64,000 bases of DNA from Deltaproteobacteria bacterium (GTDB lineage: Bacteria > Bdellovibrionota_B > Oligoflexia > Oligoflexales > Bog-1112): assembly GCA_947475005.1 (NCBI GenBank), contig CANJLI010000002.1, forward strand, positions 2,256 through 66,255, given 5' to 3'. A program made the position numbers and the translations under genes. Positions 1,863-64,000 of the stretch are shown in pieces. The notes beneath the pieces were generated by a model that was given only the letters and a program-made list of their open reading frames with translations, was not told where the DNA came from and did no database searches. The number at the start of each line of letters is the position of its first letter. Position 1 is the first letter of the stretch.

Positions 1863-1900
1863 AACTACCCAGGTAGTTGCCTTTTTCTTTTTATTTTTTT
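1863..1900 (+). terminator. Weak intrinsic terminator after clpA
   Basis: Stem aactac/gtagtt (1863-1878) followed by a long T-rich tract. The same architecture follows tRNA-Gly at 51370-51394. Confidence 0.45.
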
Positions 1901-1907
1901 ATTTTGT

Positions 1908-2372
1908 GGAACCAGCTGCGCAGTTTCCACACCTCCTTGCCTCGCAAGGGGAGAACGGGTTGGATTCCTTTCGGTTACCATTTGAGGGGCCAAGGCCGGC
2001 GCTCGCTCGGGGCCTCCCACCCTCTCAAAATCGCAGACAGAATCTTCGTCATAGAAGTAAGATCTCGGCTGCGATTTGTGACCCGGGTAGGGTCCCCCCA
2101 AGCGGCTGCCCTTGGCCCCTCAAATGGTAACCGAAAGGAATCCGATCGATCTCTCCCGTAGCTGCAAAGATCTGGTAGCAGCGAGAGAACGGAGGGCCAT
2201 TTCTAGAATGGCGCGCCAAAAATGGGATTGGGTCCACCTACCTTTTTAGAATAGGGACACTCGCCAAAGGCGAGTGTCCCTATTCTAAAAAGGTAGGTGG
2301 ACCCAATCCAGGAGGTGGACCCAATCCAGTTGCGAAGCAAGGAAGGCCTGGAAAACTGCGCAGCTGGTTTCC
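1908..2372. repeat. Composite twin-hairpin palindromic element, copy 1 (hybrid right half)
   Basis: Terminal inverted repeat ggaaccagctgcgcagtttcc (1908-1928) vs ggaaaactgcgcagctggtttcc (2350-2372). Long hairpin 1962-2143 has 34-bp perfect arms. Homologous to 51414-51933 and 56272-56789. Confidence 0.85.
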
Positions 2373-2409
2373 AGAAAAAAAAGAAAAAAGAAAAAAGAAA
2401 AAAGAAGTG

Positions 2410-5987: not shown

Positions 5988-6122
5988 AGCATGCCCCCTC
6001 CGTATGCGAAAGTTTCTTAGAGCATGCCCCCTCCGTCATCCCAAGGCTGCGTAGCAGCCGTATGGGATCTCGATAAAAACACAGGGATCCCATACGGTCC
6101 CTTCGGGACCTTGGGATGACGG
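5983..6122. repeat. Palindromic repeat, P module (full copy) plus 21-bp direct repeat
   Basis: cttagagcatgccccctccgt occurs twice (5983-6003, 6016-6036). Then ccgtcatcccaagg..ccttgggatgacgg (6033-6122) with inner hairpins gctgcgtagcagc, ccgtatgggatc/gatcccatacgg and gtcccttcgggac. Lies between convergent genes. Confidence 0.85.
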
Positions 6123-6129
6123 ACTGCGC

Positions 6130-9868: not shown

Positions 9869-10066
9869 GGATGACACACCCTCCGTCATCCCAAGGCTGC
9901 GTAGCAGCCGTAGAGATTGGGGACAGTTACCGAATTATTGAGTAGGAGGGGCTCACGCCCCTCCTACTCAATAATTCGGTAACTGTCCCCAATCTCTACG
10001 GTAACTGTCCCCAATCTCTACGGTAATTCGGTAACTGTCCCCAATCTCTCCCCCCAATCTCTCCCC
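9869..10066. repeat. Repeat cluster: P left half, 94-bp nested palindrome, degenerate tandem right arms
   Basis: ggatgac..gtcatcc hairpin, then P left arm. Palindrome 9908-10001 (ccgtagagattggggacagttaccgaattattg..caataattcggtaactgtccccaatctctacgg). Then partial repeats of taactgtccccaatctct. Confidence 0.85.
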
Positions 10067-15029: not shown

Positions 15030-15227
15030 GGTTATTTGTTATGCCCGCTCTTTTGGCACTGCTAATGATCGGCTTTTGGGGCTGTGGGGTTAAAACCCTA
15101 CCCAAAAATGATGCCCTTGAGCTACTTCCCGAAATTCCATTTCATTCTGTTCCAGAAAAGGGAGCCCCAACTACTACTAAGGGTGAATGCCTCCATAGCG
15201 GAAAAGGGGAGACCCACAAGTCTTGCA

Positions 15228-15254
15228 GGGACACCCACCAAAGGTGAGTGTCCC
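15228..15254. repeat. G-module palindromic repeat
   Basis: gggacacccaccaaaggtgagtgtccc. Read in frame it gives the spurious GTPTKGECP peptide in the extended dapA ORF. Confidence 0.7.
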
Positions 15255-15281
15255 TATTTTTCAAAAAAGAAGACACCACCG

Positions 15282-20800: not shown

Positions 20801-21150
20801 TTAAGGGACACCCGACTGCCGCTTCTTTTCCTTACATTCAAGATGGCAACCCATCCGTCATCCCAAGGCTGCGCAGCAGCCGTATGGGATCTCGATAAAA
20901 ACGCAGGGATCCCATACGGTCCCTTCGGGACCTTGGGATGACGGATTTCCAAGGAGTTAGGCAAATCGTACGCTTGCTTACATTCAAGATGGCAACCCAT
21001 CCGTCATCCCAAAGAATAATTAAAGGGACAATAATTAAAGGGACACCCGACTGGACCCGAATTGTCTATATTTTCATCAATTCGGGTCCAGTCGGGGGTG
21101 TCCCTTAATTCCTAAATTCATGGGATCCCTTCGGGACCTTGGGATGACGG
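20798..21150. repeat. Repeat cluster: intact P module, duplicated flank, and a second P module interrupted by another palindrome
   Basis: Intact P at 20855-20944. 24-bp flank cttacattcaagatggcaacccat at 20831-20854 and 20977-21000. Second P arms at 21001-21012 and 21122-21150 are separated by palindrome 21033-21110. Confidence 0.85.
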
Positions 21151-30284: not shown

Positions 30285-30290
30285 AATTTT

Positions 30291-30394
30291 TTATCGAGAT
30301 CCCATACGGCTGCTGCGCAGCCTTGGGATGACAGGACGGCTGCTGCGCAGCCTTGGGATGACAGGACGGCTGCTGCGCAGCCTTGGGATGACGG
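30291..30394. repeat. P-module right half with the 30-bp arm unit in three tandem copies
   Basis: ttatcgagatcccatacgg followed by cggctgctgcgcagccttgggatgacagga three times (30307, 30337, 30367; last copy ends ..gatgacgg). Abuts the guaB stop. Confidence 0.85.
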
Positions 30395-34255: not shown

Positions 34256-35247
34256 TCGGTATCGAAGTTGCGTACTGCTATCTGTATAATCTCCCGTATT
34301 ACCGATTCAACGATTCCATTTCGAGCTTGAGTTGTGGCATGTCTCAACAGCTGTGCGTCCACTTTACCTATGCCACTACACTGGGGAGTTATCGATGGAT
34401 TCAAGACCACCACGGGCTCTTGCGCTTTTCTTCCCTCTCTACTTTTCAAACTTTACTAGCAGGGATCACGCTACTTCTCGGGGTTGATTTTTGTTACTAC
34501 TGGTTTCACCGAATCGCACATCATAGCAATCTCGGATGGGCCACACACATCGTGCACCACTCCAGTGAAGAGTACAATCTCACCACGGCATTGCGACAAG
34601 GGGCTCTCCAGCATTTTTTCTCTTTCATTTTCTATCTCCCTCTCGCTTGGATTGGATATCCTCCTATTTGGTTTGCTTCTATGGTAGCGTTCAACACCGT
34701 CTTTCAATTCTGGGTGCACACTCGCACCATTGATAAGCTACCCGCTTGGATCGAGTATATTTTTAATACACCCTCCCACCATCGGGTCCATCACGGACAA
34801 AATCCAGAGTACTTAGATAAGAATCATGCAGGGATTTTAATTATTTGGGACCGATGGTTTGGTACTTTTGTTCCTGAAAAGGCACCCGTTCAATATGGAA
34901 TTACCACCCCGCTTCACAGCTGGCATCCTATCTGGAGCCAAGTACATTACTTTTCTTCTCTATGGGAGCAGATGCAAGGTGTACCTCGATTGCAAGACAA
35001 GCTACGGGTTTGGTACAAAAACCCAGGATGGACCCCACAGGGAACTCCCACGCCTACAGCGAGTTATGCAGAGAAATTTAACCCTATTGTGCCAATGACA
35101 AATCTAAAATGGGCACTGGGGTGGTTTGCCATTGCTCTACTTTTTTATTTGCCCTTTCAAAGCGTATCTCCATTTTTACAGCTTCTCTTTACACCGGTGG
35201 TGGTCGTGTGTTTGATTAAAAGTGCCTCACGGCTTACCCATATTTGA
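34183..35247 (+). CDS. Fatty acid hydroxylase / sterol desaturase superfamily membrane protein
   Basis: Three His boxes: HRIAHH, HIVHHSSEEYN, HHRVHHG. aaggagag 8 nt upstream of the ATG. Confidence 0.8.
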   Translation: MQSSIEHLLTLDYIQLATPIFLLLIGIEVAYCYLYNLPYYRFNDSISSLSCGMSQQLCVHFTYATTLGSYRWIQDHHGLLRFSSLSTFQTLLAGITLLLGVDFCYYWFHRIAHHSNLGWATHIVHHSSEEYNLTTALRQGALQHFFSFIFYLPLAWIGYPPIWFASMVAFNTVFQFWVHTRTIDKLPAWIEYIFNTPSHHRVHHGQNPEYLDKNHAGILIIWDRWFGTFVPEKAPVQYGITTPLHSWHPIWSQVHYFSSLWEQMQGVPRLQDKLRVWYKNPGWTPQGTPTPTASYAEKFNPIVPMTNLKWALGWFAIALLFYLPFQSVSPFLQLLFTPVVVVCLIKSASRLTHI

Positions 35248-36423
35248 CTCTTTCACTTGAGTCAATAAAGTGGCTGCATGGGACCAACTCAGCACACGTC
35301 CTGTCTTTCGGTTTTGATCTTCCTCACCTCCATAAATCACATACCCAAGGCTTGGGTCTACCGAGGCAATATCGGACCATCTAGTAAGGTTTTTGAAAAA
35401 ATCCTTGTTGATAGTTTCTCCCGATTTTATTTCGATGGGGATCAGCTTTACACCAAGATCGATAAGTCCATCGATTTCTAATGTGCCATTTTGATCCCTC
35501 CAAAAATAAAGAGAAGGACGTAATCCTTGGTTGTAATATTGCTTGTACAAATCCGATATAATCAAACATTCAAAAAGGGCACCTCGGAAAGAACTCAGTA
35601 ACAAATCCTTCGCAGAGGAAATTTCTAACAAGGAACATACAAGACCAGTATCATAAAAATATAGCTTTGCATTTTTCGTAATTCTTTTATTGAAATTATT
35701 GAAATAGGGTTTTAATAGAAAAATAATATAGCTGGCTTCTAGCACAGATAGCCATTTATCGATGGTACGTCGATCGACTCCACAATTTGTCGCAAGATCT
35801 GTTACATTAATCTGTTGTCCCACTCGAGCTGCACATAATTGCATAAACTTCTGAAAGACATGAATATCTCCAATATTGGCAAATTGTCGAACATCCCGTT
35901 CGATATAAGAATGAATATAAGAAGGCAGCAGCTCTACGGGAGAAAAAGATTCTGCGTACAATCGTGGATACCCACCGTTAAAAATAGCCTCATGGGGGGT
36001 TTTGACTAGGGTGTGCTGAAGAAGTTCATGCAACGACAAAGGCAGCAAGGTCAAAATCCCAACGCGTCCAGCCAAAGATTGTGTAATTGCTTGATTCATC
36101 AAGAAATTATGGGATCCTGTGAGAACAAAATATCCAGGTCTTTTCTTTTCATCAGAATCCACTTGTATGTAGGAAAGAAGTTCTGGAACATACTGAAATT
36201 CATCAATAATAATACCGATTGGATTTTCAAGTTGTTTTAAAAACCCTTGGGGATCGTTGGCAGCAAACGCCCTCTGCTGCGGATTTTCCAAAGAAACGAA
36301 GCGATGGGCATGGAAAACCGTTTTTACGAGAGTCGTTTTTCCCGATTGACGAGGCCCCAACAAGGCCACAACCGGGAATTTTGCGAATCGTAACAGGGAC
36401 TTCTCTAGATCTCTTTGGAACAT
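35227..36423 (-). CDS. AAA+ ATPase with DUF4143-type C-terminal domain
   Basis: Walker A GPRQSGKTT, Walker B IIIDEFQ. The overall 398-aa layout matches the COG1373 family as I recall it. AT-rich gene. Confidence 0.82.
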   Translation of the reverse strand: MFQRDLEKSLLRFAKFPVVALLGPRQSGKTTLVKTVFHAHRFVSLENPQQRAFAANDPQGFLKQLENPIGIIIDEFQYVPELLSYIQVDSDEKKRPGYFVLTGSHNFLMNQAITQSLAGRVGILTLLPLSLHELLQHTLVKTPHEAIFNGGYPRLYAESFSPVELLPSYIHSYIERDVRQFANIGDIHVFQKFMQLCAARVGQQINVTDLATNCGVDRRTIDKWLSVLEASYIIFLLKPYFNNFNKRITKNAKLYFYDTGLVCSLLEISSAKDLLLSSFRGALFECLIISDLYKQYYNQGLRPSLYFWRDQNGTLEIDGLIDLGVKLIPIEIKSGETINKDFFKNLTRWSDIASVDPSLGYVIYGGEEDQNRKTGRVLSWSHAATLLTQVKESNMGKP

Positions 36424-37382: not shown

Positions 37383-37421
37383 GTCATCCCAAGGCTGCAT
37401 AGCAGCCGTATGGGATGACGG
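37383..37421. repeat. Minimal P-module hairpin
   Basis: gtcatcccaaggctgcatagcagccgtatgggatgacgg. Confidence 0.8.
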
Positions 37422-37477
37422 AAATTACACCAGGGGACCTAGGGAGGCAACGCGAAGCAATCTGAAGCCCCTCGCTT

Positions 37478-40707: not shown

Positions 40708-41067
40708 GTGTCCGAAACTGAGCTGATCATCCAACAAAAGAAAATATCTGGAAATTTCGGATACGAGGTGAAAGTCAGAAAGGTGCCACCATCGCCAATA
40801 TATCCAGATGGATATAAAATCAACTGTGCCCTATGGTTAATAGAAGAAAAAAGGAAAATCTTGATCTTAGACGCACATGAACCATTTGGAACTCATCTAC
40901 ACCCAGAACCTGAAACCAACCATGATCTTCGCATTTCGGTTCCTCTTAAAGACCCGATCGAAGTGGTTGAATATTTTTCGGTGATTGTGAATCGAATCCT
41001 GTCCTCTGCAGACTATAAAAAAGTAATTCAAGAGGTTGTAAATGAAGCCAATCAATATCAAATTTAA
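40708..41067 (+). CDS. Small protein resembling DUF6516 / TumE-like putative toxin
   Basis: 119 aa with central His-rich patch LDAHEPFGTHLHPEP. Overlaps a downstream wHTH gene. The family assignment is from memory only. Confidence 0.6.
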   Translation: MSETELIIQQKKISGNFGYEVKVRKVPPSPIYPDGYKINCALWLIEEKRKILILDAHEPFGTHLHPEPETNHDLRISVPLKDPIEVVEYFSVIVNRILSSADYKKVIQEVVNEANQYQI

Positions 41068-41449
41068 ATCAAATGAAGATTTCTTTGGCGATATAAAGAA
41101 TGCCATTAAATCAAACAAAAGCCTCCTGCAAAAAAGTGATACCATCTATTTCGATGATTATAAAGGCTTTCAGGATTTCATGTTTCCTACCCGCTTTGAT
41201 GTGCTTGCTGCGATCCGGGCTTTTAAGCCAACTTCTATTTATTTCTTGGCAAAGTTATTGCAACGGCATTACCAAAGCGTTCTAAAAGACTGCAATGCCC
41301 TAGAGGTTGCTGGATTCATCCTCACGGAGAAAAAGACGGGCGAAAGAAACCAAACTGTACCCAGCCTTGCATTCGATTATGACACCATTATTGTTCACAA
41401 TCTGGAGATGGGAAAAATGAGCCACTCTTTACCATCAAAAGCGGCTTAA
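41042..41449 (+). CDS. Winged-HTH protein, putative antitoxin/regulator (HVO_A0114-like layout)
   Basis: N-terminal ..EDFFGDIKNAIK.., then ..RFDVLAAIRAFKPTSIYFLAKLLQRHYQSVLKDCNALEVAGFI.. (wHTH). 26-nt overlap with the upstream gene. Confidence 0.65.
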   Translation: MKPINIKFKSNEDFFGDIKNAIKSNKSLLQKSDTIYFDDYKGFQDFMFPTRFDVLAAIRAFKPTSIYFLAKLLQRHYQSVLKDCNALEVAGFILTEKKTGERNQTVPSLAFDYDTIIVHNLEMGKMSHSLPSKAA

Positions 41450-42417: not shown

Positions 42418-42648
42418 ATGAAAAAGACATATCCAACTAGAATCACAGCTGACTTAGGAAATCCACTGTTGATGCAAATGCTGAAATTAGAGGCCCAACA
42501 AAAAAATATCACCCTCAGAGAAGTGCTGGTCACAGCCCTCGAATGCTATTTTGGGCACCGTCTTGAGCAACAACTGATATACAAAGCCGCCCAAGACACT
42601 ATGCACGAATGGAAAGACCCCAAGGAGGATGCATATGACAAGCTCTGA
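42418..42648 (+). CDS. Ribbon-helix-helix antitoxin-like protein
   Basis: 76 aa. ..TRITADL..LL..LKLEAQQKNITLREVLVTALECYF is a CopG/RHH pattern. Overlaps the downstream MazF-like gene. Confidence 0.7.
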   Translation: MKKTYPTRITADLGNPLLMQMLKLEAQQKNITLREVLVTALECYFGHRLEQQLIYKAAQDTMHEWKDPKEDAYDKL

Positions 42649-43000
42649 TTTGTCTTCCATACCTGTCGGAGCAATTGTTTTGGTTCAATTTCCATTTTCA
42701 GATTTAACATCGCACAAAAAACGACCGGCCTTAGTGCTCTGCCATGTAGAGTTTTCTAAGACCATCCAACTAATTACTGTGGCCATGATCACAAGCAAAA
42801 TCGACACACATGGATTGCCTGGAGATGTCTACCTCGAAGATTGGCAGACATCAGGCCTTCTATTTCCAAGCCTCGTCCGGCTATCTAAATCTGTAACCCT
42901 TGAGACAGAGCTTATCCTTGGAATACGAGGTGTACTGACGAAGAAGGACCACGGGAAAGTGAGAGAACAATTCCAGATACTTTTTGCACCTTGGGTTTAG
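42629..43000 (+). CDS. MazF/PemK-family toxin (mRNA interferase-like)
   Basis: GAIVLVQFPFSDLTSHKKRPALVL is the PemK N-terminal signature. ~120 aa. Alternative ATG at 42635. Confidence 0.8.
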   Translation: MHMTSSDLSSIPVGAIVLVQFPFSDLTSHKKRPALVLCHVEFSKTIQLITVAMITSKIDTHGLPGDVYLEDWQTSGLLFPSLVRLSKSVTLETELILGIRGVLTKKDHGKVREQFQILFAPWV

Positions 43001-46625: not shown

Positions 46626-46737
46626 GATGACATCCTTTTTATTTGGATACTATACGATGAGTGTAATCATGGTTTTGAAATAAGGGAAATTTTTCTTATT
46701 TATTTAAGGGGGGGGATGAAATCGGGGGCACCCACCA

Positions 46738-46916
46738 GTCATCCCAAGGCTGCGTAGCAGCCGTATGGGATCTCGATAAAAATGCAGGGATCCCATACGG
46801 CCCCTTCGGGACCTTGGGATGACGCAACGGTCCAAAAGGGACCTTGGGATGACGCAACGGTCCAAAAGGGACCTTGGGATGACCGGAACGGTCCCAAAGG
46901 GACCTTGGGATGACGG
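46738..46916. repeat. P module with right-arm unit repeated in tandem
   Basis: Full P at 46738-46823. Then gcaacggtccaaaagggaccttgggatgac twice (46824, 46854) and a variant (46884-46916). Confidence 0.85.
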
Positions 46917-46926
46917 AAAAAGAATA

Positions 46927-51282: not shown

Positions 51283-51359
51283 GCGGGAGTAGCTCAGTTG
51301 GCTAGAGCGTCGCGTTGCCATCGCGAAGGTCGAGGGTTCGAGTCCCTTTTCCCGCTCCA
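51283..51359 (+). tRNA. tRNA-Gly (anticodon GCC), CCA encoded
   Basis: Hand-folded cloverleaf: acceptor gcgggag/ttcccgc, D arm gctc..gagc, anticodon stem tcgcg/cgcga with loop ttGCCat, T arm gaggg ttcgagt ccctt. Close to E. coli tRNA-Gly(GCC). Confidence 0.93.
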
Positions 51360-51369
51360 CTTTTCTTTT

Positions 51370-51394
51370 ACCACCGTAGGTGGTGCCTTTTTTT
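51370..51394 (+). terminator. Small terminator hairpin after tRNA-Gly
   Basis: accacc gta ggtggt, then gcc and a T7 run. Confidence 0.5.
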
Positions 51395-51413
51395 AATTTT
51401 TACTTTTTTATTT

Positions 51414-51933
51414 GGGAACCAGCTGCGCAGTTTCCCAAACCCTCCTTGCCACGCACTTGGGAAGCAGTAGCTTTTCTTTTGGTTAACACCTTAGAAGCCA
51501 AGGCCGGCGCTCGCTCGGGGCCTCCCACCCTCTCAAAATCGCAGAGCAAGCTCCCGTCATGGACAGTAATAACCAGGCTGCGATTTGTGACCCGGGTAGG
51601 TCCCCCCAAGCGGCTGCCCTTGGCTCCTCTTATGTTAACCGAAAGAAATCCTACCCCGTTCTCTCGATGCTACCGAGAATCTTTGCAGCGGCGGGAGAGC
51701 TGTGAATGAATCCAAAGAAGACATAGGGAAGGGCAGCCAGGTAGAGGGATCCCGACGGGTTGTAAATCGCAGCCTGGTTATTACTGTCCATGACGGAGGC
51801 CCTGTCTGCGATTTCAAGAGTCGGGAAGAATCTGCCTGAGCGCCGGCCTTCCCTCTGCCGTCTTTGGATTCATCCACCGCTCTCTCAATGCGAGGCAAGG
51901 AAGGGTCTGGGAAAACTGCGCAGCTGGTTTCCC
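51414..51933. repeat. Composite twin-hairpin palindromic element, copy 2 (inverted relative to copy 3)
   Basis: TIR gggaaccagctgcgcagtttccc (51414-51436) vs gggaaaactgcgcagctggtttccc (51909-51933). Long hairpins at ~51470-51651 and ~51708-51871. Confidence 0.85.
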
Positions 51934-52047
51934 AGAAATAGAAAAAAATAAAAAATAACCCGCCAGACAGGTAATTTTTTTTCCTTTCTTTTGTTCACCA
52001 TACATTTATAATTGGCCAAACGGTCAAAATTATAAATGGAGTGCGTC

Positions 52048-54548: not shown

Positions 54549-54926
54549 ATGGGTTGGCCTATACAACTTTTATTCGCAATTTCTTTGGGGTTATTCGGCG
54601 CATCTATAAACGGAAAAGCTCCAGCCTCCAAGCATTACATGGACGGCGTGGCTCAAAAGCTTCAAGACACCTACTGGACCCGGTGGTATCGAACTCACAC
54701 CAGCAAATCCCATAGAGATATAGAAGGGGAACTGCAGACCTGGCAGCACTTCGATCAAATTTTTCGTCATGATGCTAACGATCCCCTCACCCTTGAAGAA
54801 AGGGAAAAGCAGAGATGGGAGGGGGAAAATAGACCTGAAGGCACTATTTTTACACAGCCCACTGCAGAAGTGTGGCAAGTTCTGCCTCTTCATAGCGAAT
54901 CCACAGGGTCTCCGATTTCTCAATAA
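54549..54926 (+). CDS. Hypothetical small secreted protein
   Basis: Strong aaggagg 6 nt upstream and a signal-like N-terminus. The 3' end overlaps the convergent NFACT gene by 77 nt. Confidence 0.5.
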   Translation: MGWPIQLLFAISLGLFGASINGKAPASKHYMDGVAQKLQDTYWTRWYRTHTSKSHRDIEGELQTWQHFDQIFRHDANDPLTLEEREKQRWEGENRPEGTIFTQPTAEVWQVLPLHSESTGSPISQ

Positions 54927-56238
54927 GCCAGAGCCCAGCCGGCAACCCCTTTTTCTTTCGTAAATAGCGTCGCTGGGTACAATACACCTCTGCCTCCCGC
55001 CCCCGTCGCACTTTGGAGTAATGCACGGCATAAATGCCAGCCTGTCTTTTGAGATCTTCCGTCATTTGCCGCCCTGGCAAGGTTCGAAGGGGCACAATTA
55101 CATGAGAGCCAGTTGTTCCCACCACGTGAAACCAATAATCATTGGCCTGTGCTGCTTTCGTCATCACATCGTTTTCCGATGGACTCTTACCGATGAGAAA
55201 AGAAACCTGGTGTTCGTTTTCAAACACACGATAGGGAAGGCTTTCCTTCTCCACAGCAGCACTCACCGAACGAGGTTGAGGTGGAGTCAACTGGTAGCGA
55301 GTTAAGATGCGCTCCACAGCCTCCCAGGGGAGAGGATCCCCCTTTAGCGTTGCCAGAGCGGCCTCCAAACCCTGGGCTTCCTTTTCTGCAGAGTCAAGAT
55401 ACCGCGTGGCAACTTCTGTGGCTCGCTTGCCCTTCTTTACCGCCTTAAAGCGCCCTTCAATTTGAGCACCCAAGGATTTGTCAGGGTCCAACGTGATCAC
55501 GCGATTACTTTCCTCTCCCGTTTCTTCAGGCAAAAGTACGATCTCTGCTGCCTCCGCAGGAATGCGAGCTCCGTACATTTGCAGCCATTTGGCCTCGGCA
55601 AGAAGCTGGACTGGATCCTCGGGTAGCTGATGGTGTAGACGTGCAATGGACTTACGTACCGTACGCAATTTTCGCTTGAGTTGATCTTTGGCGCTGCGCT
55701 GGTACCCAGGGATGTTGGTTTCGAGCCCTGAGGGTTGCTCCTCTTCTGAGGCTTTCTCTTCCTTCTCCTCTGGAGTCTGCAAGGCAGCTTCGATCCATTG
55801 GGCATACACGTTTTGGAAATGGCTCTCAGACGGTTCAGGAAAGACACCCTCGTAGGCTTTCTTTTTCGTGAAGGTACCTTTTTCACCGAAACGAAGTAAA
55901 TCCATACGATCTGGTGACAACAAATGCACTTGTCGATCTTTACCGGCACCTTCTACCCAGAGATACCACGTGCCTTGTAAGTTGGAGAGCGGTAGCCACG
56001 TTTCATGGGTACGCGGATCCCACCAAATTTTTTCGATACGGGCTGTAGGGATATGCTTGCGCAACAAGCCCACCAGGGGGTGTGCTGTGCTGGTGGATTC
56101 TGGTTTTTCTGCTAGCCAGCGTACTGGCTGTACCTCTTGGGGGTTAAGCGCTAGGTAGCGCTTTTTTCTTTCGACAGATACTTGCCAGACTAGTTGGGTT
56201 TGACAGAACCAATGTTTTTGGATTTGGATATATTTCAT
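54850..56238 (-). CDS. NFACT-R (DUF814) domain protein, RqcH/FbpA-like
   Basis: C-terminal ..NDYWFHVVGTTGSHVIV..AGIYAVHYSKVR..EVYCTQRRYLRKKKG..G (DUF814). Central Glu/Lys coiled coil. The start is taken at MKYIQIQ (56238) because the upstream 42 codons lie in repeat copy 3. Confidence 0.78.
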   Translation of the reverse strand: MKYIQIQKHWFCQTQLVWQVSVERKKRYLALNPQEVQPVRWLAEKPESTSTAHPLVGLLRKHIPTARIEKIWWDPRTHETWLPLSNLQGTWYLWVEGAGKDRQVHLLSPDRMDLLRFGEKGTFTKKKAYEGVFPEPSESHFQNVYAQWIEAALQTPEEKEEKASEEEQPSGLETNIPGYQRSAKDQLKRKLRTVRKSIARLHHQLPEDPVQLLAEAKWLQMYGARIPAEAAEIVLLPEETGEESNRVITLDPDKSLGAQIEGRFKAVKKGKRATEVATRYLDSAEKEAQGLEAALATLKGDPLPWEAVERILTRYQLTPPQPRSVSAAVEKESLPYRVFENEHQVSFLIGKSPSENDVMTKAAQANDYWFHVVGTTGSHVIVPLRTLPGRQMTEDLKRQAGIYAVHYSKVRRGREAEVYCTQRRYLRKKKGLPAGLWLIEKSETLWIRYEEAELATLLQWAV

Positions 56239-56271
56239 TTTTTTTCTCTCTTTTTTTCTTTTTTTTTCTAA

Positions 56272-56789
56272 GGGAAACCAGCTGCGCAGTTTTCCCTTAA
56301 ACCCTTCCTTGCCTCGCAAGGGGAGAGTTGTGAGATCCCTTTCAATTACCATGTTAGATGCCAAGGCCGGCGCTCAGGCAGATTCTTCCCGACTCTTGAA
56401 ATCGCAGACAAGACCTCCGTCATGGACAGTAAAAACCAGGCTGCGATTTACAACCCGTCGGGATCCCTCTACCTGGCTGCCCTTGGCCCCTCAAATGGTA
56501 ACCGAAAGGAATCCGACTGCTCTCCCGTAGCTGCAAAGATCTGGTAGCAGCGAGAGAGTGGAGATACATTTCCAGAATGGCGCGCCAAGGGCAGCCGCTT
56601 GGGGGGACCTACCCGGGTCACAAATCGCAGCCGAGAGCTTACTTCCATGACGAGAATACTGTCTGCGATTTTGAGAGGGTGGGAGGCCCCGAGCGAGCGC
56701 CGGCCTTGACGTGTCATTCTGGAAATACATCTCCATTTTCCCCTTGCTAGGCAAGGAAGGGTCTGGGAAAACTGCGCAGCTGGTTTCCC
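56272..56789. repeat. Composite twin-hairpin palindromic element, copy 3
   Basis: TIR gggaaaccagctgcgcagttttccc (56272-56296) vs gggaaaactgcgcagctggtttccc (56765-56789). Long hairpins at ~56334-56513 and ~56568-56726. T-rich and A-rich tracts reach the flanking start and stop codons. Confidence 0.85.
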
Positions 56790-56804
56790 AGAAAGAAAAA
56801 AAAA

Positions 56805-59800
56805 CTAAGAAGGCTCGTTCCATCTATTCGCAAGGTTTCCAACCTCTCTATCGTAGGTAAAAAACCGAATGATCAAGGCAGCAAAATAGGTCCCTGCCCA
56901 CGTAGGATCTTCGTACTCTTTCAACCACGAAAATTTGAGTCCCCAACATTTGGAAGGAGACGAATACTGCATCGCAGCAGACACCCTCTCTTCACGAGCA
57001 GCATCCACCTCGTACAACGTACGATTTCCATACTCAAATAAAGTCTCAATGTGCGGTATCAAAGTCGAACGAAGCCCATAGGTTTTCGTAAGGGTCTTTC
57101 GCGCAATAAACCCACCATTTACTGGGTCTGCAGTCAGGTTATTCTCCAAGCCAAGACCCAATGTTAGAGTGGTATCAAATACCGTAGGTGGCGTTAAGGT
57201 GTAAATCGACTCAACAGCTGTATGGGAATAAAGATTGAAACGACTGCGCAGTGCTAGAGTCCAATTCCTCCATGCACTAGACACGTTGCTTCGTAACTCA
57301 GACCAGGGTTGCGGCAACGCATTCTCCGGTATTTGAGGATCTTTCTGCAATTCTTTTCGCTGTCTGGCTTTCACCCAGTCATAATCGATATCAGCCTGTG
57401 CACTGAGAGGCGCTTGTTGATTCGAACGCTGCAGTGAATATCGATTGATATTCCACTCACCGATTTTTGGATTATACAAAGATCGCGTATTATGAATGGA
57501 CTCATCAAGACCCAACGTTAACTCTTGTTGCGCTTGCTCACGCACCGAAAGAGAGGCAGCGCCTGCCTTCGATACAGATTTGGGTGTAAGGTTCCAACCC
57601 TCATCAAATAAAAACCAATCGTGATTGGTGGATAAAATAATTTTCTGATGGGGAAACATAAAATCTTGTTCAGGCAAATAATCGGTTCCAATATTGTTTT
57701 TTAAATCACTGGGGAAATAAGTCAAATAGGGATCACGTGGCTTGAGATTGCCATTTGCATCCGGTGTATATTCACTGGCTATTTCCCCATATTGCCCACG
57801 TCGAACCACGAAGGGACGCATGGAAAGCGTTACCTTCCAGGTCATGCGATGCTCCAACCAAGACTGGACGTCAGGATTTTCCCCTGCAAGCAAGGGCATT
57901 TTCCCCTCCATGGGCAACGAAAGATTGAGTCCAAATCGAACCGTACGCATGGAGGAGAGAGAGCTACCTTCCCGATTCAAATCAGGCTCTTTTGCAGGAG
58001 AAGCGGCGGAGGCAGTTTTGTACTCCTGCAGCTGACTGGAAATCGAACGCAACTCACCCACAGAAAAAGCATCCAAGAGAAAAATTTTATCGGTCAAAAT
58101 AGGGGTCATCAACTGCAAGCGAAAACGACGCCATCCTCCGTTGGAAAGCGCAAAAGTTTGGCTCCCAGGAGGCGCATTCTGCTGAAAAGCAGGGTCCGAG
58201 GCATACGAAAGTTGACGCATCGTAAAATCAGCCTGCCCATAGATGGGATGAGGCAAATACGAACGACCGAAGGAGAAAAAACGCGATTGCAACTTTACCG
58301 CAAGTGGATTTTGGTAGCCAGAAAATCGAGAGTTAAGCAACATCTGATCGCCCCAATGGCTCCCAACCCCGAGATAAAAATTTTCTGCATCGAGATGGGA
58401 CTGCACATGAACTTTAGAAAAAGTTTGAGGCAAAAGTGGATCAAATACATCGAGTAAGTTGGTGAAATACAAATCTTGGGTATATCGATGGTCCGTCACC
58501 ACATTCCCTTGACTCATAAAAGACCATCGAGGGGCAAGAAAGGTTTGCCCTTTCCACTGGACCTTACCACGCCCCCCTCCGGAATATCCCTGCAAAGACT
58601 CTAGGACAGATGCAATACAAGCGTCCGGATCCGAACTGTCCAAACAATTTTTGCCTTGTGGCATCGAAGCCCACCAGCCTGGGTCCTGAATCGTGGGGGC
58701 TTGAAGATTTAAATTGGCACGTTCGGTGGGTGTCATGGCATCATAACGGGTTTTTGCGGTTTTAAAACCAGCTTCATACTGATAGCTCACCGTTTGCCTC
58801 GTGGCTTTTTGGCCGAGCTGGAGACGATCTTGAAGACCTTCTACCTGCGTCTCCCACCCCGAGTAAGTGCCCCTCTCATGTCGATACTGTGCCCCCAATC
58901 GAAATCCTCTTTTTTCGATATAATCGGTAGTAATCGTCGCATCCTGATCTTTACCGATATCCAAAAAGAGAGATTCTGAAAAAATATTTCCATTCAAGCT
59001 GTCATAAGTAATCGAGGGTAGTAAAAAACCGGATTGCCGTTCGCTTTTTGCCGGTATCCGCAAATAGGGCAGATATAAAACTGGAACCCCTTTAATTTCC
59101 AAGACCGGATTATACAAATCCGCATACCCCTCGACTTGAGCATTGATTTTCTCCGCTTGAAAAGCCCAAGCAGGGCTTTCATCAGCCGCACAAAAACAAG
59201 GCGTTAGGTATCCATTGGTGGTTCTCACCTCATATTGGTGAATGCGCTCGATGACTTTTCCCTGCAAACGAAAATATCCCAAATGCAACACATTCTGATT
59301 GTTCATCAATGCTTTTTCTTGGCTATCCTTCCAGAACTGACGCCGTCGTTGCAGCTGCTTGTAGCGTTCAGATTGAATTCCAAAGTGAGCAATATTTTCT
59401 TGCCCCTTGATATGAGCTTCCTCTCGCAACAAAATTTCGTACTGTGCCTCTCGTTCTTTTTTTTCGGAAGAGGAAAGATTCGGATACTGTTTCAAATATT
59501 GTGCACGAGCCGCATTTTTTTTGCCCTCAATTTCCTGCAACCATCTTTGCCGGTTGACTTCAAATTCAATCTCCTGAGGACTAACCCCCAACACAGATTC
59601 TACAATTTTTTTGACTTCGGCTTCTGAGTTAGCTGTAAGAAGAGCTTTGGTGAGGCTAAAATCTCCCGTATCCAAATCGTAGTGCAGTTCATCTCCGGTA
59701 AAAACCTGCTGGGAACTAATCAACAGGATGTTACCTCTTGCCTCGAAGGTTTTTTTGATCCGATCGAGCTCAATATGATCCGCAAGGATCAGAGTGCCTG

Positions 59801-61439: not shown

Positions 61440-61579
61440 GGGGACACCCGATGCGAGTGTCCCCAGAGGGATCCCAAGGTCCCGCATGGGATCCCTGGGT
61501 TTTTATCGAGATCCCATACGGTCCCTGCGGGACCTTGGGATGACGAAAGAGGAAGGGGACACCCCGTTGGAGTGTCCCC
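61440..61579. repeat. Repeat cluster: G module, degenerate P module, G module
   Basis: ggggacacccgatgcgagtgtcccc (61440-61464). gggatcccaagg..tatcgagatcccatacggtccctgcgggaccttgggatgacg (61468-61545). ggggacaccccgttggagtgtcccc (61555-61579). Confidence 0.8.
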
Positions 61580-61594
61580 ATGGGCCGAGAAGGA

Positions 61595-64000
61595 TTACCC
61601 CTTCGCAACCAAAGGCTTATTTAGCAGCCGGCGGTTTCTCCAACGCTCAAACCAAACTACAAATGAACTGGCAACCAAAATAGAGGTTAGAGTCGCCGTA
61701 ATAATCCCGATGGTCAAAGCCATGGCAAAATCCCAAACTTGGCCTTTTGCCACGAACAAGATTCCCAAGAGAGAGACTCCGGTAGCAACGGAAGTGTTGA
61801 TCGAACGCCCGAAGGTCTCGTTCACAGAGATATTGACGTTGTCCTCCAGGGAGCGCCTTGGAAACAACTGCAAATTCTCTCGAATTCGGTCATAGATCAC
61901 AATCGTATCGTTTACGGAGTACCCCACTACCGTAAGGAACGCAGCTACAGAAACCAGGTCAAAGGTAATCCCAAAGAAGGCATAGAACCCAAACATGATC
62001 ACCGTATCCAAAATCATCTTGGCAAAGGCACTCGGAGCAAAACGCATATCGAATCGGAAGGCAATATAAAGAGCCACTGCCATAATGGCATATAGAACCG
62101 AAAGAATCCCTTGGCTTCGCAGATCGCTTCCCACTTGAGGGCCAACAAAGTCAATCTTCAAGATCTCAGGCCCGTGCACTTTCAACTTCTCCAACAACGT
62201 GGATTTGAAAGAAAGGAATGTATGAGAATCCTCTGCCTTGGTCTCTGCAGCACCCTCGAGTTGTACTCTCTCGTGCTTAGAAGCATCATAACGAAGCAGG
62301 TATTGTTTCTTACCCCCTTCGAGAGCTTGAAGGGTCACTCCTTCCAAACCAGATTTTTCTGCCAACTCCCGAATTTGACCTGGTTCGACATCCGTAGTAA
62401 AGCCCAAGGTCATTTCGGTTCCACCGGCAAAATCCACACCGAAGTTGATGCCCTTAATAGCGGTAGCCCCGATCACAGCAAAGGCCAGTAGCATAGCGAG
62501 CGCGGTAGAAAAAGAACCTGCCCGTAGGAAGTTGATGTTGCGTACTTTGTGCTCTGTGCCACTCACACCCAACCAAGATTTCAGATTGCGCTCTGGAATC
62601 CACGTCATTGCCAGGTCAAATAGAAGACGGGTTCCGTAAAGAGCCACGAATACAGAGACCAAAAGTCCGATAATCAAAGTAACTGCAAATCCACGAATCG
62701 GCCCGGAGGTATTGGTTTCTAGCAAAACAAAAGCAGCAATTAAGGTCGTAACGTTAGCATCGACAATGGTACGGAAAACCTTGGAGAAAGCCATTGGTAC
62801 GGCTTTACGCGGGTGGCGACCCTCTCGAAGCTCTTGACGAATTCGCTCGTTGATCAACACGTTGGCATCCACCGCCATACCCAGCGTCAAAATAAAACCC
62901 GCAATCCCTGGCAAGGTAAAGGAAAGACCAAAACCAGCCATAATCGCCAAGTGGAAGACCGCGTTCAAAATCAACGCCACACAAGCGATCACCCCAGGAC
63001 GACGGTAGTAAAGAAGCATGAACAGGAGCACACAGAACAGACCAATGACAATGCCTTGAATCCCTTGATTCGCCAATTCAGGCCCAAGGCTCGCACCCAC
63101 TTCAGATTGCTGCAATACCTTGATTTCAGCAGGAATGGAACCGGACTTGAGGATCAAAGAAAGCTGCTTGCCCTCTTCCATAATGTCGTTGTAGCTACGC
63201 CCCCCGCCCAAACTGATGCTCGCGCGGCCCCCGGTAATTTTGGTTTGGATAACAGGCGCAGACTCCACCACATCATCAAGGATGATGGCAAGGCGCTTCT
63301 TAATGTTCGCACCGGTAACCTCTGCAAAACGACGTCCCCCAGGACCAGAGAAGGTCAAGGCTACGGCAGGGCGGTGATCCAAGCTATCGCCTTGGGCCAA
63401 TACCGCATCTTGGACATCCTCACCGGTAATTTGGGTAGCCGCATGAACAACAAAGGAGGTCCAGCGATTCTTCGCGTGGGTACCGTCCCCTAAAACTTGA
63501 CGATGAAACAATAGCTCGCGGTCTTGAGGCACATGAGGTTGCAAGAAGGCTGCCAACTTATCGCGGTCTTCAGAAGAGAACGCGATCTGTCCGCCATTTT
63601 CAGAAACTTCAACGCCAGCTGGGACCTTATCGCGCAAGCTGTCCAAACCGGTAAACTGATCATCTACGATTTTAAATTTTAGCTGTGCGGTACGGCCGAG
63701 CAATTCCTTGGCACGTTCTGGATCTTTAAACCCAGGCAATTGCACCAGAATGGAACCATCCGCGCGGCGGAAAATCATGGGTTCTGCAACGCCCCATTTG
63801 TCCACACGAGATCGCACGACGCGCTCGGCTTGCTCTACAGCACTTTTCCCGATGCGCTCCATTTCGGTTTTACTATAGCCATAGCTAAGAGCGCCATCTT
63901 TGTGGGCATTTGCTTCTAGAAGCGGGAACTCTTTCTTCACAGCTAGTTTAAACTTGGCAATATCGTCGTCTTGTTTGCTGGTTAGCTGAACAACAACCTC
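61595..64000 (-). CDS. secDF: Fused protein-export membrane protein SecDF (5' end off-window)
   Basis: SecD periplasmic P1 head and TM bundle, followed without a stop by a SecF domain. The frame stays open upstream of the listed GTG through position 64000. Confidence 0.9.
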   Translation of the reverse strand, partial: EVVVQLTSKQDDDIAKFKLAVKKEFPLLEANAHKDGALSYGYSKTEMERIGKSAVEQAERVVRSRVDKWGVAEPMIFRRADGSILVQLPGFKDPERAKELLGRTAQLKFKIVDDQFTGLDSLRDKVPAGVEVSENGGQIAFSSEDRDKLAAFLQPHVPQDRELLFHRQVLGDGTHAKNRWTSFVVHAATQITGEDVQDAVLAQGDSLDHRPAVALTFSGPGGRRFAEVTGANIKKRLAIILDDVVESAPVIQTKITGGRASISLGGGRSYNDIMEEGKQLSLILKSGSIPAEIKVLQQSEVGASLGPELANQGIQGIVIGLFCVLLFMLLYYRRPGVIACVALILNAVFHLAIMAGFGLSFTLPGIAGFILTLGMAVDANVLINERIRQELREGRHPRKAVPMAFSKVFRTIVDANVTTLIAAFVLLETNTSGPIRGFAVTLIIGLLVSVFVALYGTRLLFDLAMTWIPERNLKSWLGVSGTEHKVRNINFLRAGSFSTALAMLLAFAVIGATAIKGINFGVDFAGGTEMTLGFTTDVEPGQIRELAEKSGLEGVTLQALEGGKKQYLLRYDASKHERVQLEGAAETKAEDSHTFLSFKSTLLEKLKVHGPEILKIDFVGPQVGSDLRSQGILSVLYAIMAVALYIAFRFDMRFAPSAFAKMILDTVIMFGFYAFFGITFDLVSVAAFLTVVGYSVNDTIVIYDRIRENLQLFPRRSLEDNVNISVNETFGRSINTSVATGVSLLGILFVAKGQVWDFAMALTIGIITATLTSILVASSFVVWFERWRNRRLLNKPLVAKG

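Follow-up and report, generated by a model that had tools for sequence, protein, structure and literature searches.

What fills the spacer between the LptD-like gene and the NFACT gene in the 64,000-nt stretch of contig CANJLI010000002.1 that we analyzed (hereafter the window, from an uncultured Oligoflexales-like bacterium)? We found that the whole of this 566-nt spacer (56239-56804) is one copy of a non-coding palindromic element of ~0.5 kb, and that the window holds three copies in all, as a first-pass annotation made from the sequence alone had described. That annotation offered two readings, a non-autonomous mobile element resembling a MITE (miniature inverted-repeat transposable element) that lands in A/T tracts beside terminators, or a structured RNA locus of ~0.5 kb. 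On balance, we favor the view that the element is a non-autonomous, mosaic palindromic DNA repeat of the Oligoflexales-like lineage, similar to the repetitive extragenic palindrome (REP), bacterial interspersed mosaic element (BIME) and REP doublet forming hairpin (REPIN) systems, and not an RNA gene; it was probably moved through its terminal hairpins by an enzyme that acts in trans.

The copy in this spacer (copy 3) has the parts that had been listed for it, each where it had been placed: a T tract, 25-nt termini, mini-hairpins, two long imperfect hairpins with inner helices, a central hairpin and an A tract (Table 1). Its termini are exact reverse complements over 25 nt, and an inverted-repeat scan extended this terminal repeat to 38 nt at 89% complementarity; the right terminus is the consensus one, common to all three copies. 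Both long hairpins close on GCCAAGG/CCTTGG(C), and in each of them a 9-bp inner helix (AAATCGCAG/CTGCGATTT) encloses an apex of ~32 nt, while the A-rich tract beyond the right terminus reaches the stop codon at 56805-56807. Terminus and apex helix are each present at only three places in the window (1908-2372, 51415-51932 and 56273-56788), with none expected from shuffled sequence. Self-complementarity of copy 3 is 68%, and the 566 nt have a predicted fold of -312.6 kcal/mol (z -19.5) on the plus strand and of -310.7 kcal/mol (z -18.0) on the minus strand.

The terminal hairpin is part of a module of ~45-50 nt, which consists of a T-run, a hairpin of 7-9 bp with variable outer pairs and the apex CCAGCTGCGCAGT, a gap of 2-8 nt, and a YCCTTGC box. 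Across 191 distinct instances the apex is fixed and stem positions 1-7 are 94-99% Watson-Crick paired, with several pair types at positions 3, 5, 6, 7 and 8; the share of G-T pairs does not exceed 1% of cells at positions 1-7 and is 3-5% at positions 8-9. The box lies 10-18 nt past the apex in 180 of the 191 modules, similarity among modules ends sharply right after it, and the stretch 5' of the stem is T-rich. A scan of one genome per species gave more than 100 matches to the module motif at the least, most of them, among the matches listed, in the metagenome-assembled genome (MAG) JACPKR01 ("Deltaproteobacteria bacterium NC_groundwater_500"). Further hosts are CANIBL01 (RE-9nov16-152), JAGNWK01 (Oligoflexales), one uncultured proteobacterium and two Clostridia MAGs, and the JGI metagenomes added 68 loci, mostly from freshwater samples (loci are cited below by L number). 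The modules are intergenic, with 163 of 203 outside rough calls of open reading frames (ORFs), and they show no bias in gene direction, as their flanking genes are co-directional (35 + 31), convergent (34) or divergent (19). Neither the module nor the whole element had a real match in plasmid and phage collections; viral contigs and 5,426 Escherichia coli genomes gave no match, and a literature search for the apex sequence returned unrelated primers only.

Two occurrences outside the lineage share both apex and box. The same apex with a CCTCCTTGC box is present at L060:284-681 (Flemingiibacterium MAG) and L034:2440-2520 (Clostridia MAG RGIG4141); in the two gut Clostridia MAGs the module caps, or sits within, another repeat, together with GAGCGCAAGTCGGGC and GTATTACGC, beside housekeeping genes. 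We set aside a group of marine loci that share the 21-mer GGAACCAGCTGCGCAGTTTCC (L114, L125, L133, L135, L140, L149, L151, L153, L156, L157, L161, L163, L164, L167 and L168), which are probably unrelated, as their stem is weak, the box is missing and the contigs are ORF-poor. In these loci the identical 21-mer is sub-terminal in both arms of a ~590-bp repeat, with inverted repeats ~50 nt past the motif, and its occurrence there is probably chance motif sharing amplified by copy number.

Modules are mostly solitary, with about 190 lone occurrences in Oligoflexales-like MAGs and freshwater metagenomes, and inverted doublets and composites occur as well. In the composites, inverted modules cap no, one or two long hairpins (88 bp in all at L115, 288 bp at L100, 401 bp at L084 and 486 bp at L065), and doublets and composites together span 88-509 bp. 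The long hairpins, each ~180 nt and one or two per element, are lineage-specific; in CANIBL01 one or two of them lie between module caps at L076, L100, L084 and L065 (the apices of L100 and L065 are mutated), and a metagenome scan for the long-hairpin core gave no match. In the JACCDV01 metagenome, long-hairpin-like units that start with GGCCGGCGCT (GGCCGGTGCT in L124, which also holds AATCGCAG) adjoin modules at L124, L150 and L152, and because of these similar units the long-hairpin family is somewhat wider than the window organism and CANIBL01. Other interiors are capped by modules as well: in JACPKR01 an element of ~135 nt, and in a Clostridia MAG one of 390 bp. The former is highly repeated (for example L004:6900-7040, L013, L017 and L028), with the hairpin embedded as cttggggcaaatagggagaggggggtttgggggggcgagtgaagcgtcgcctcccccggatttcttgga-hairpin-tccaaaccacctccttgccccaagtggcttacgcattac; it has a second hairpin of its own, its outer helix seems by eye to covary in some copies, and it has no match in Rfam.

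Partial and tandemly reiterated copies of the module are common, and their junctions cluster at the center of the apex, between CTGC and GCAG: 3' halves begin with GCAG, CGCAG or GCGCAG, and 5' halves end in ..CTGCGC. Moreover, in one variant an 18-nt mini-hairpin with a TTCG loop (TACCCCTTCGGGGCACAG) sits exactly at the apex center, between CTGCG and GCAG (L106, L109, L118 and L132, from the freshwater metagenome Ga0114970/Ga0209190).

The three copies in the window lie in three unrelated contexts within 64 kb and are 78-83% identical over their common parts, but the first-pass statement that the other copies have the same parts needed amendment. By sequence, the long hairpins fall into types A and B, and the copies differ in which type stands where and in its orientation. 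Copy 2, between a tRNA (51283-51356) and a gene at 52036, is essentially copy 3 with its interior inverted, whereas in copy 1 a nested 86-nt perfect palindrome replaces the second (right) long hairpin. The central hairpin of copy 3 is matched at 91% in copy 1 and is inverted in copy 2. The right termini of the window copies form one subfamily and each left terminus is different; between copies 2 and 3, the right ends agree at 91% over a stretch of 67 nt that takes in the beginning of the A-run. Independent metagenome assemblies of the window organism stop inside or right beside the element (L176:1 and the ends of L178 and L179). The palindrome in copy 1, which is followed by an 18-nt partial duplicate, belongs to a third hairpin family of the window, GGGACAC(T/C)C..G(A/G)GTGTCCC (2224-2309, 15227-15265, 61460-61485 and 61575-61600).

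We reached syntenic contigs of relatives through their NFACT homologues, and compared the orthologous spacers. Against the 566-nt composite of the window, the NFACT spacer has 12 nt and no hairpin in L175 (NFACT identity 52%), 57-59 nt with one solo hairpin in L171 and L174 (71%), and a variant, perfectly paired hairpin in L177 (70%). The L171 and L174 spacers read TAG..TTTTTT..GGGAAACCAGCTGCGCAGTTTCC..AAAAAAATG, and L171 is identical to a CANIBL01 contig. At the site of copy 1, the spacer between the ClpB and leucine-rich repeat (LRR) genes measures 554 nt in the window and 51 nt in L180, where it is one solo module (T-run, hairpin and CACCTCCTTGCC) squeezed between both stop codons; similarity between this solo and copy 1 ends right after CCTTGCC. 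At the site of copy 2, the tRNA-Gly spacer holds no module in L171 or L175. Empty sites thus exist at two loci (the 12-nt NFACT spacer and the tRNA-Gly spacer), and relatives carry a solo module in two of the three spacers where the window has a composite; the loci of these relatives have 3-4 modules in about 40 kb, an occupancy of about 10% of spacers. From these comparisons, the composite is a gain or expansion relative to the other lineages.

The solo modules also bear on where the element lands and how it persists. Since a T-run accompanies them in relatives (L171 and L180), the T and A runs, the latter a mirror image of the former, belong to the module and not to the target. The suggestion that the element lands in A/T tracts beside terminators was therefore not borne out; moreover, copy 3 has no adjacent terminator, and relatives carry a solo module at two of the three sites. 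In L171 and L174, whose flanks are 92% identical, about 7 of 62 spacer positions differ between the solos, apex included, from which we conclude that individual copies drift, and therefore that the family consensus must be renewed by copying. In its broad sense the mobile half of the first-pass reading held, in that the element is multi-copy, non-coding, absent from spacers of relatives, prone to break assemblies, and without a transposase in the window.

How might such an element move? The unit is the ~45-50 nt module, dispersed alone through intergenic DNA of the Oligoflexales-like lineage; two inverted modules cap a linker of variable size, nearly absent at one extreme (88 bp for the whole composite) and made of one or two of the ~180-nt long hairpins at the other. 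A trans-acting enzyme, most likely a hairpin-specific transposase of the HUH/Y1 type, would recognize the module in its folded hairpin form, on DNA that is single-stranded or extruded, and may cut near the apex and/or between CC and TTGC of the box. Composites would then arise, grow and shrink by recombination with resident modules, addition of units and palindrome-driven deletion, and individual copies would decay afterwards. The patterns of junctions and termini would fit cleavage and joining at apex and box, with one-sided addition of DNA beside a resident module. Apex and box junctions and one-sided addition match the published model for TnpA_REP of E. coli, an enzyme that cleaves between CC and T: there, recombination with a site where a REP or BIME is already present lets an excised BIME integrate, and rolling-circle-like synthesis adds further units (PMC3333891). 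In addition, insertion sequences are known to target REPs (PMC1525189).

Several observations weigh against this interpretation. No REP-associated tyrosine transposase (RAYT) was detected when the window and about 1.3 Mb of loci were searched, both by tblastn with the E. coli RayT and with a profile built from 119 RayT proteins; this search covered part of each genome, with an enterobacterial profile, and a weak match at L152:216-716 was discarded, because its translation did not look transposase-like by eye. The first-pass annotation had seen no transposase near the element; the 46 ORFs of the window contain no transposase, recombinase or HUH domain by Pfam, and where inverted termini lie 1-3.5 kb apart, the DNA between them carries only ordinary cellular genes. 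A strictly lagging-strand mechanism on single-stranded DNA would give runs of the same orientation, and adjacent modules on JACPKR01 contigs share orientation in 41 of 81 cases, with neither run structure nor replication-strand bias. The modules have no GTAG or CGTC tag, and the 470-nt structured linker far exceeds any BIME linker known to us. By our own rough estimate, solos and composites would share sites by chance with p about 0.03, which is only modestly significant, and the solos could equally be collapsed composites. Finally, excision and insertion are deduced from the arrangements, with no event observed directly.

The multi-copy ORF clusters found in the module loci are ABC ATPases and AAA_14-DUF4143 proteins, and we considered the latter as a possible partner. 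In JACPKR01, seven of eight members lie within about 200 nt of a module or remnant, an enrichment that is uncertain because these loci had been preselected for modules (L048, L055, L062, L069, L074, L077, L093 and L098; the family is divergent, with 23-56% identity). The AAA_14-DUF4143 ATPase gene of the window (35227-36423, minus strand) has no module nearby, and we did not adopt these proteins as partner but keep them as a lead.

The rival that survives best, although we judge it unlikely, dispenses with a dedicated enzyme: the hairpin would be a structural DNA motif that the host maintains or that spreads passively, and composites would enlarge and collapse through template switching at hairpins during replication, gene conversion among copies, and SbcCD-type cleavage and repair of hairpins. 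Fold-back copying would give arms with DNA-type complementarity and unrelated outer stems, as we see, and partial copies have their junctions at the hairpin apex, a point of polymerase stalling and of cutting by hairpin nucleases. L103 and L116, which come from near-identical strains, have unequal numbers of tandem units, and the RAYT searches found no enzyme. However, such processes leave unexplained the arrival at formerly empty spacers, the presence in two Clostridia MAGs of the same invariant 13-nt apex and box, and the sharp 3' boundary after CCTTGC, and they do not provide for the renewal of the consensus, by copying from active sources, that decaying copies call for.

A doubtful possibility retains an enzyme but not a known one: the apex hairpin and the CCTTGC box might be the substrate of an undescribed hairpin-specific enzyme for single-stranded DNA that crosses phyla (the Oligoflexales-like lineage and Clostridia), and that acts by one-sided "copy-in" at a resident box. 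The long hairpins plus one consensus terminus would be joined exactly at the box of a resident solo, and the long hairpins might be functional cargo, for example signals for single-strand replication or priming. If true, this would be a mode of transposition not yet described.

It is improbable, in our judgment, that the element is a classical MITE, that is, a deleted derivative of a DDE insertion sequence, with 25-38 bp termini recognized in double-stranded DNA and cut-and-paste mobilization by a full-length copy elsewhere. The element does have terminal inverted repeats, is small, non-coding and multi-copy, and is missing from orthologous sites; moreover, 64 kb of the host genome were seen, and an autonomous partner could lie elsewhere. 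Nevertheless, we found no direct target-site duplication, the flanks being the mutually reverse-complementary T and A runs of the element itself, and the two ends of one element often belong to different subfamilies. In addition, the terminus is abundant as a one-ended solo unit, its covarying stem and fixed apex point to recognition of a folded structure, and no ORF-bearing element with these ends was found in about 1.3 Mb.

We consider a structured RNA very improbable, whether as a cis-acting part of the LptD-like/NFACT mRNA (a stabilizer, processing signal or translational control) or as a stand-alone non-coding RNA. Such a role would accord with the very stable fold on both strands, with the transcription of the element within an operon (see below), and with the strong covariation of the long hairpins. 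Nine of these, of which the window supplied five and CANIBL01 four, align to a common structure with 57 pairs: the paired cells amount to 92.3%, compared to 71.4% in shuffles and 33-47% with slid partners, 36 of the 57 pairs changed on both sides, and the covariation score was 0.559 compared to 0.164, with 0 of 500 shuffles as high. Nevertheless, RNA helices usually evolve through wobble intermediates, and one-sided (G-U type) changes are almost absent here; the outer stems are replaced wholesale between units, with complementarity still perfect. Because the changes are double Watson-Crick changes with hardly any G-U, we read the stems as DNA palindromes and not as RNA. Rfam gave no support either: at the gathering threshold of Rfam 15 only a tRNA passed in the window and no family beyond tRNAs in ten related loci, and with E up to 10 the best matches on the element (E about 1-8) were far below gathering. 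Furthermore, modules show no orientation bias with respect to genes, the three window contexts are unrelated, a nested insertion has cost copy 1 an entire long hairpin, a loss that it tolerates, the drift of solo copies runs at about neutral rate, and the element has neither a promoter nor a convincing terminator. Some apex variants do hold a UUCG-type mini-hairpin, and in some lineages the box resembles an anti-Shine-Dalgarno sequence. We compared the module with the 3' end of E. coli 16S rRNA (GGGGAACC..TGCG..CACCTCCTT) and rejected mimicry or an anti-Shine-Dalgarno role, since the register of the hairpin differs and only TCCTTGC is constant across lineages. Thus the alternative of a ~0.5 kb structured-RNA locus was not supported, and we retain the reading of a mosaic DNA repeat.

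Three other readings were rejected: a protein-coding element, because ORFs over it are in different frames from copy to copy, with no conserved ORF (as the first-pass annotation had noted); an outward promoter or built-in terminator, because we found no sigma-70-type promoter inside it and only one weak terminator-like site (minus strand, 56457-56437) that is within the shuffle range; and a sigma-54 promoter at TTGC, because no GG lies at the needed spacing.

Table 1. Positions of the flanking genes and of the parts of the three element copies in the window
Feature	Position	Strand	Remark
NFACT (RqcH/YloA-like) gene	54850-56238	-	Pfam NFACT-R_1 and NFACT_N; directly downstream of copy 3
Copy 3, T-run of left terminal module	56239-56271		On the minus strand, A-rich leader ending at the NFACT ATG (56236-56238)
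Copy 3, left terminal hairpin TAAGGGAAA-CCAGCTGCGCAGT-TTTCCCTTA	56269-56299 (core 56272-56296)		Inverted-repeat scan; covarying stem, invariant apex in 191 instances
Copy 3, left box CCTTCCTTGC (56303-56312) and mini-hairpin CCTTGCCTCGCAAGG (56307-56321)	56303-56321		Box in 180/191 modules
Copy 3, long hairpin type A	56334-56513		Conserved core 56362-56487
Copy 3, inner helix of type A	56399-56407/56441-56449		Within 56334-56513; apex holds CGTCATGGA
Copy 3, central small hairpin ctctcccgta-GCTGC-aaagatctggta-GCAGC-gagaga	56520-56557		Sequence reading
Copy 3, long hairpin type B, inverted orientation	56560-56734		Core 56584-56708; inner helix 56622-56630/56663-56671
Copy 3, right mini-hairpin (56742-56756) and right box GCAAGGAAGG (56751-56760)	56742-56760		GCAAGGAAGG is the reverse complement of CCTTCCTTGC
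Copy 3, right terminal hairpin TCTGGGAAA-ACTGCGCAGCTGG-TTTCCCAGA and A-run (56790-56804)	56762-56804		Core 56765-56789
LptD-like gene, 1049 aa	56805-59954	-	Partial NCBIfam LptD match; directly upstream, same strand
Copy 1	1882-2404		T-run, left hairpin (1905-1931), box, long hairpin B, center
Copy 1, right part	2224-2404		Nested 86-nt perfect palindrome (2224-2309), right hairpin (2349-2373), A-run
Copy 2, left part	51386-51957 (whole copy)		T-run, left hairpin core (51415-51435), box (51440-51449), long hairpin B
Copy 2, right part	Same element		Inverted center, inverted long hairpin A, box (51895-51904), right hairpin (51909-51933), A-run

The genes on either side of copy 3 (Table 1) place it within an operon, because the order accD, LptD-like gene (1023-1047 aa) and NFACT, all co-directional, is kept in L171, L174 and L175, and for the same reason copy 3 must be transcribed in mRNA. 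The label lptD in the first-pass annotation can stand only in part, since the protein gave a partial NCBIfam match (E 3.8e-27, 94.8 bits) that is well below the cut-off of 683, and had no Pfam match. The true start of NFACT is the ATG at 56238, giving 462 aa, because the MKYIQI of orthologues starts at this codon; in the public annotation, P0001 (500 aa, 54850-56364, minus strand) begins inside the element. As had been proposed, NFACT must be expressed through the element, being the downstream gene of the operon with no sigma-70-type promoter in the element. Whichever way the element is read, each terminal hairpin has a T-run before it and an A-run after it, so that a terminator of the hairpin-then-U-tract type is never presented, and the NFACT start codon is left with an A-rich leader ahead of it. 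Any effect on NFACT expression would have to be inferred from this layout, which is what the sequence itself gives.

Intergenic palindromic repeats are unusually abundant in the genome of the window. A second hairpin family, GTCATCCCAAGGCTGCGTAGCAGCCGTATGGGATC..GGTCCCTTCGGGACCTTGGGATGAC, is unrelated to the element and comprises at least four full copies (6028-6123, 20850-20945, 46731-46826 and 61452-61547) and several partial ones, with further sites at 9885-9932 and 37383-37430 and tandem 30-nt arrays at 30288-30392 and 46793-46918. Two other genes of the window are unconnected to the element, a PemK/MazF-type toxin gene (42629-43000, plus strand) and a small ORF that matches the HVO_A0114 family (41042-41449).

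These results would extend REP/BIME-style systems to an uncultured lineage related to predatory bacteria, with unusually large and highly structured mosaics, and the 13-nt apex and box in Clostridia MAGs, which cross phyla, hint at a hairpin-recognizing enzyme. They also matter for genome data, as the elements lie in operons, break metagenome assemblies (L176, L178 and L179) and cause gene calls to be over-extended (500 instead of 462 aa for NFACT). Moreover, the orthologous series from empty spacer to solo hairpin to composite could reveal how repeats are seeded, grow and decay.

How, then, does the element compare with known systems? MITEs such as Correia of Neisseria, enterobacterial repetitive intergenic consensus (ERIC) sequences or intergenic repeat units (IRU), the repeat unit of pneumococcus (RUP) and Nezha are likewise non-coding and <600 bp with terminal inverted repeats, are multi-copy with a single long-hairpin fold, lie near or between genes and are co-transcribed with them, and likewise break assemblies and mislead gene calls. 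Unlike them, the element is without target-site duplication, its termini are hairpins that also abound as one-ended solos, its two ends are often of different subfamilies, and no parental insertion sequence was found in about 1.3 Mb of loci. The palindrome-associated transposable elements (PATEs) of the IS200/IS605 family likewise have end hairpins with a short conserved motif a few nt past the hairpin foot and no target duplication, and recognition of single-stranded hairpins is plausible for both. In contrast to PATEs, the end hairpins here are inverted and not in the same orientation on one strand, modules have no strand bias along contigs (41 of 81), and no Y1 transposase was found in about 1.3 Mb of loci and the window.

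The closest likeness is to REP, BIME and REPIN systems, such as those of E. coli and Pseudomonas, which likewise rest on a short (20-40 nt), imperfect palindromic unit in high copy between genes (here 191 modules with a stem of 7-9 bp), form inverted pairs with variable linkers and mosaics, and occur as solos beside doublets, at sites that co-directional or convergent genes flank. REPs come in clusters of inverted pairs whose linkers vary, and the model in which resident units serve integration and units are added stepwise (PMC3333891, PMC3116915, PMC3733652) fits the solo and composite sites and the tandem reiteration that we observed. The differences are equally definite. There is no sequence similarity (none of the 5,426 E. 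coli genomes matched), so that the first-pass view that the element is not REP/BIME, ERIC or Correia was correct by sequence. The palindrome of a REP carries at one end a tag, GTAG or CGTC, that is unpaired (PMC3733652), whereas the module has a T-run or "gatttc" on its 5' flank and YCCTTGC on its 3' side, with GTAG before the hairpin only in L171. Here also, conservation resides in the apex and the downstream YCCTTGC box rather than in the stem, the unit is bordered by T and A runs, about 470 nt of conserved long hairpins can make up the linker, and the host is an uncultured Oligoflexales-like lineage in which no RAYT, the Y1 HUH gene that REP units flank, was found in about 1.3 Mb and the window. 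Thus, we conclude that the element does not have the layout of a PATE and is not a REP, BIME or REPIN by sequence, yet behaves like one.

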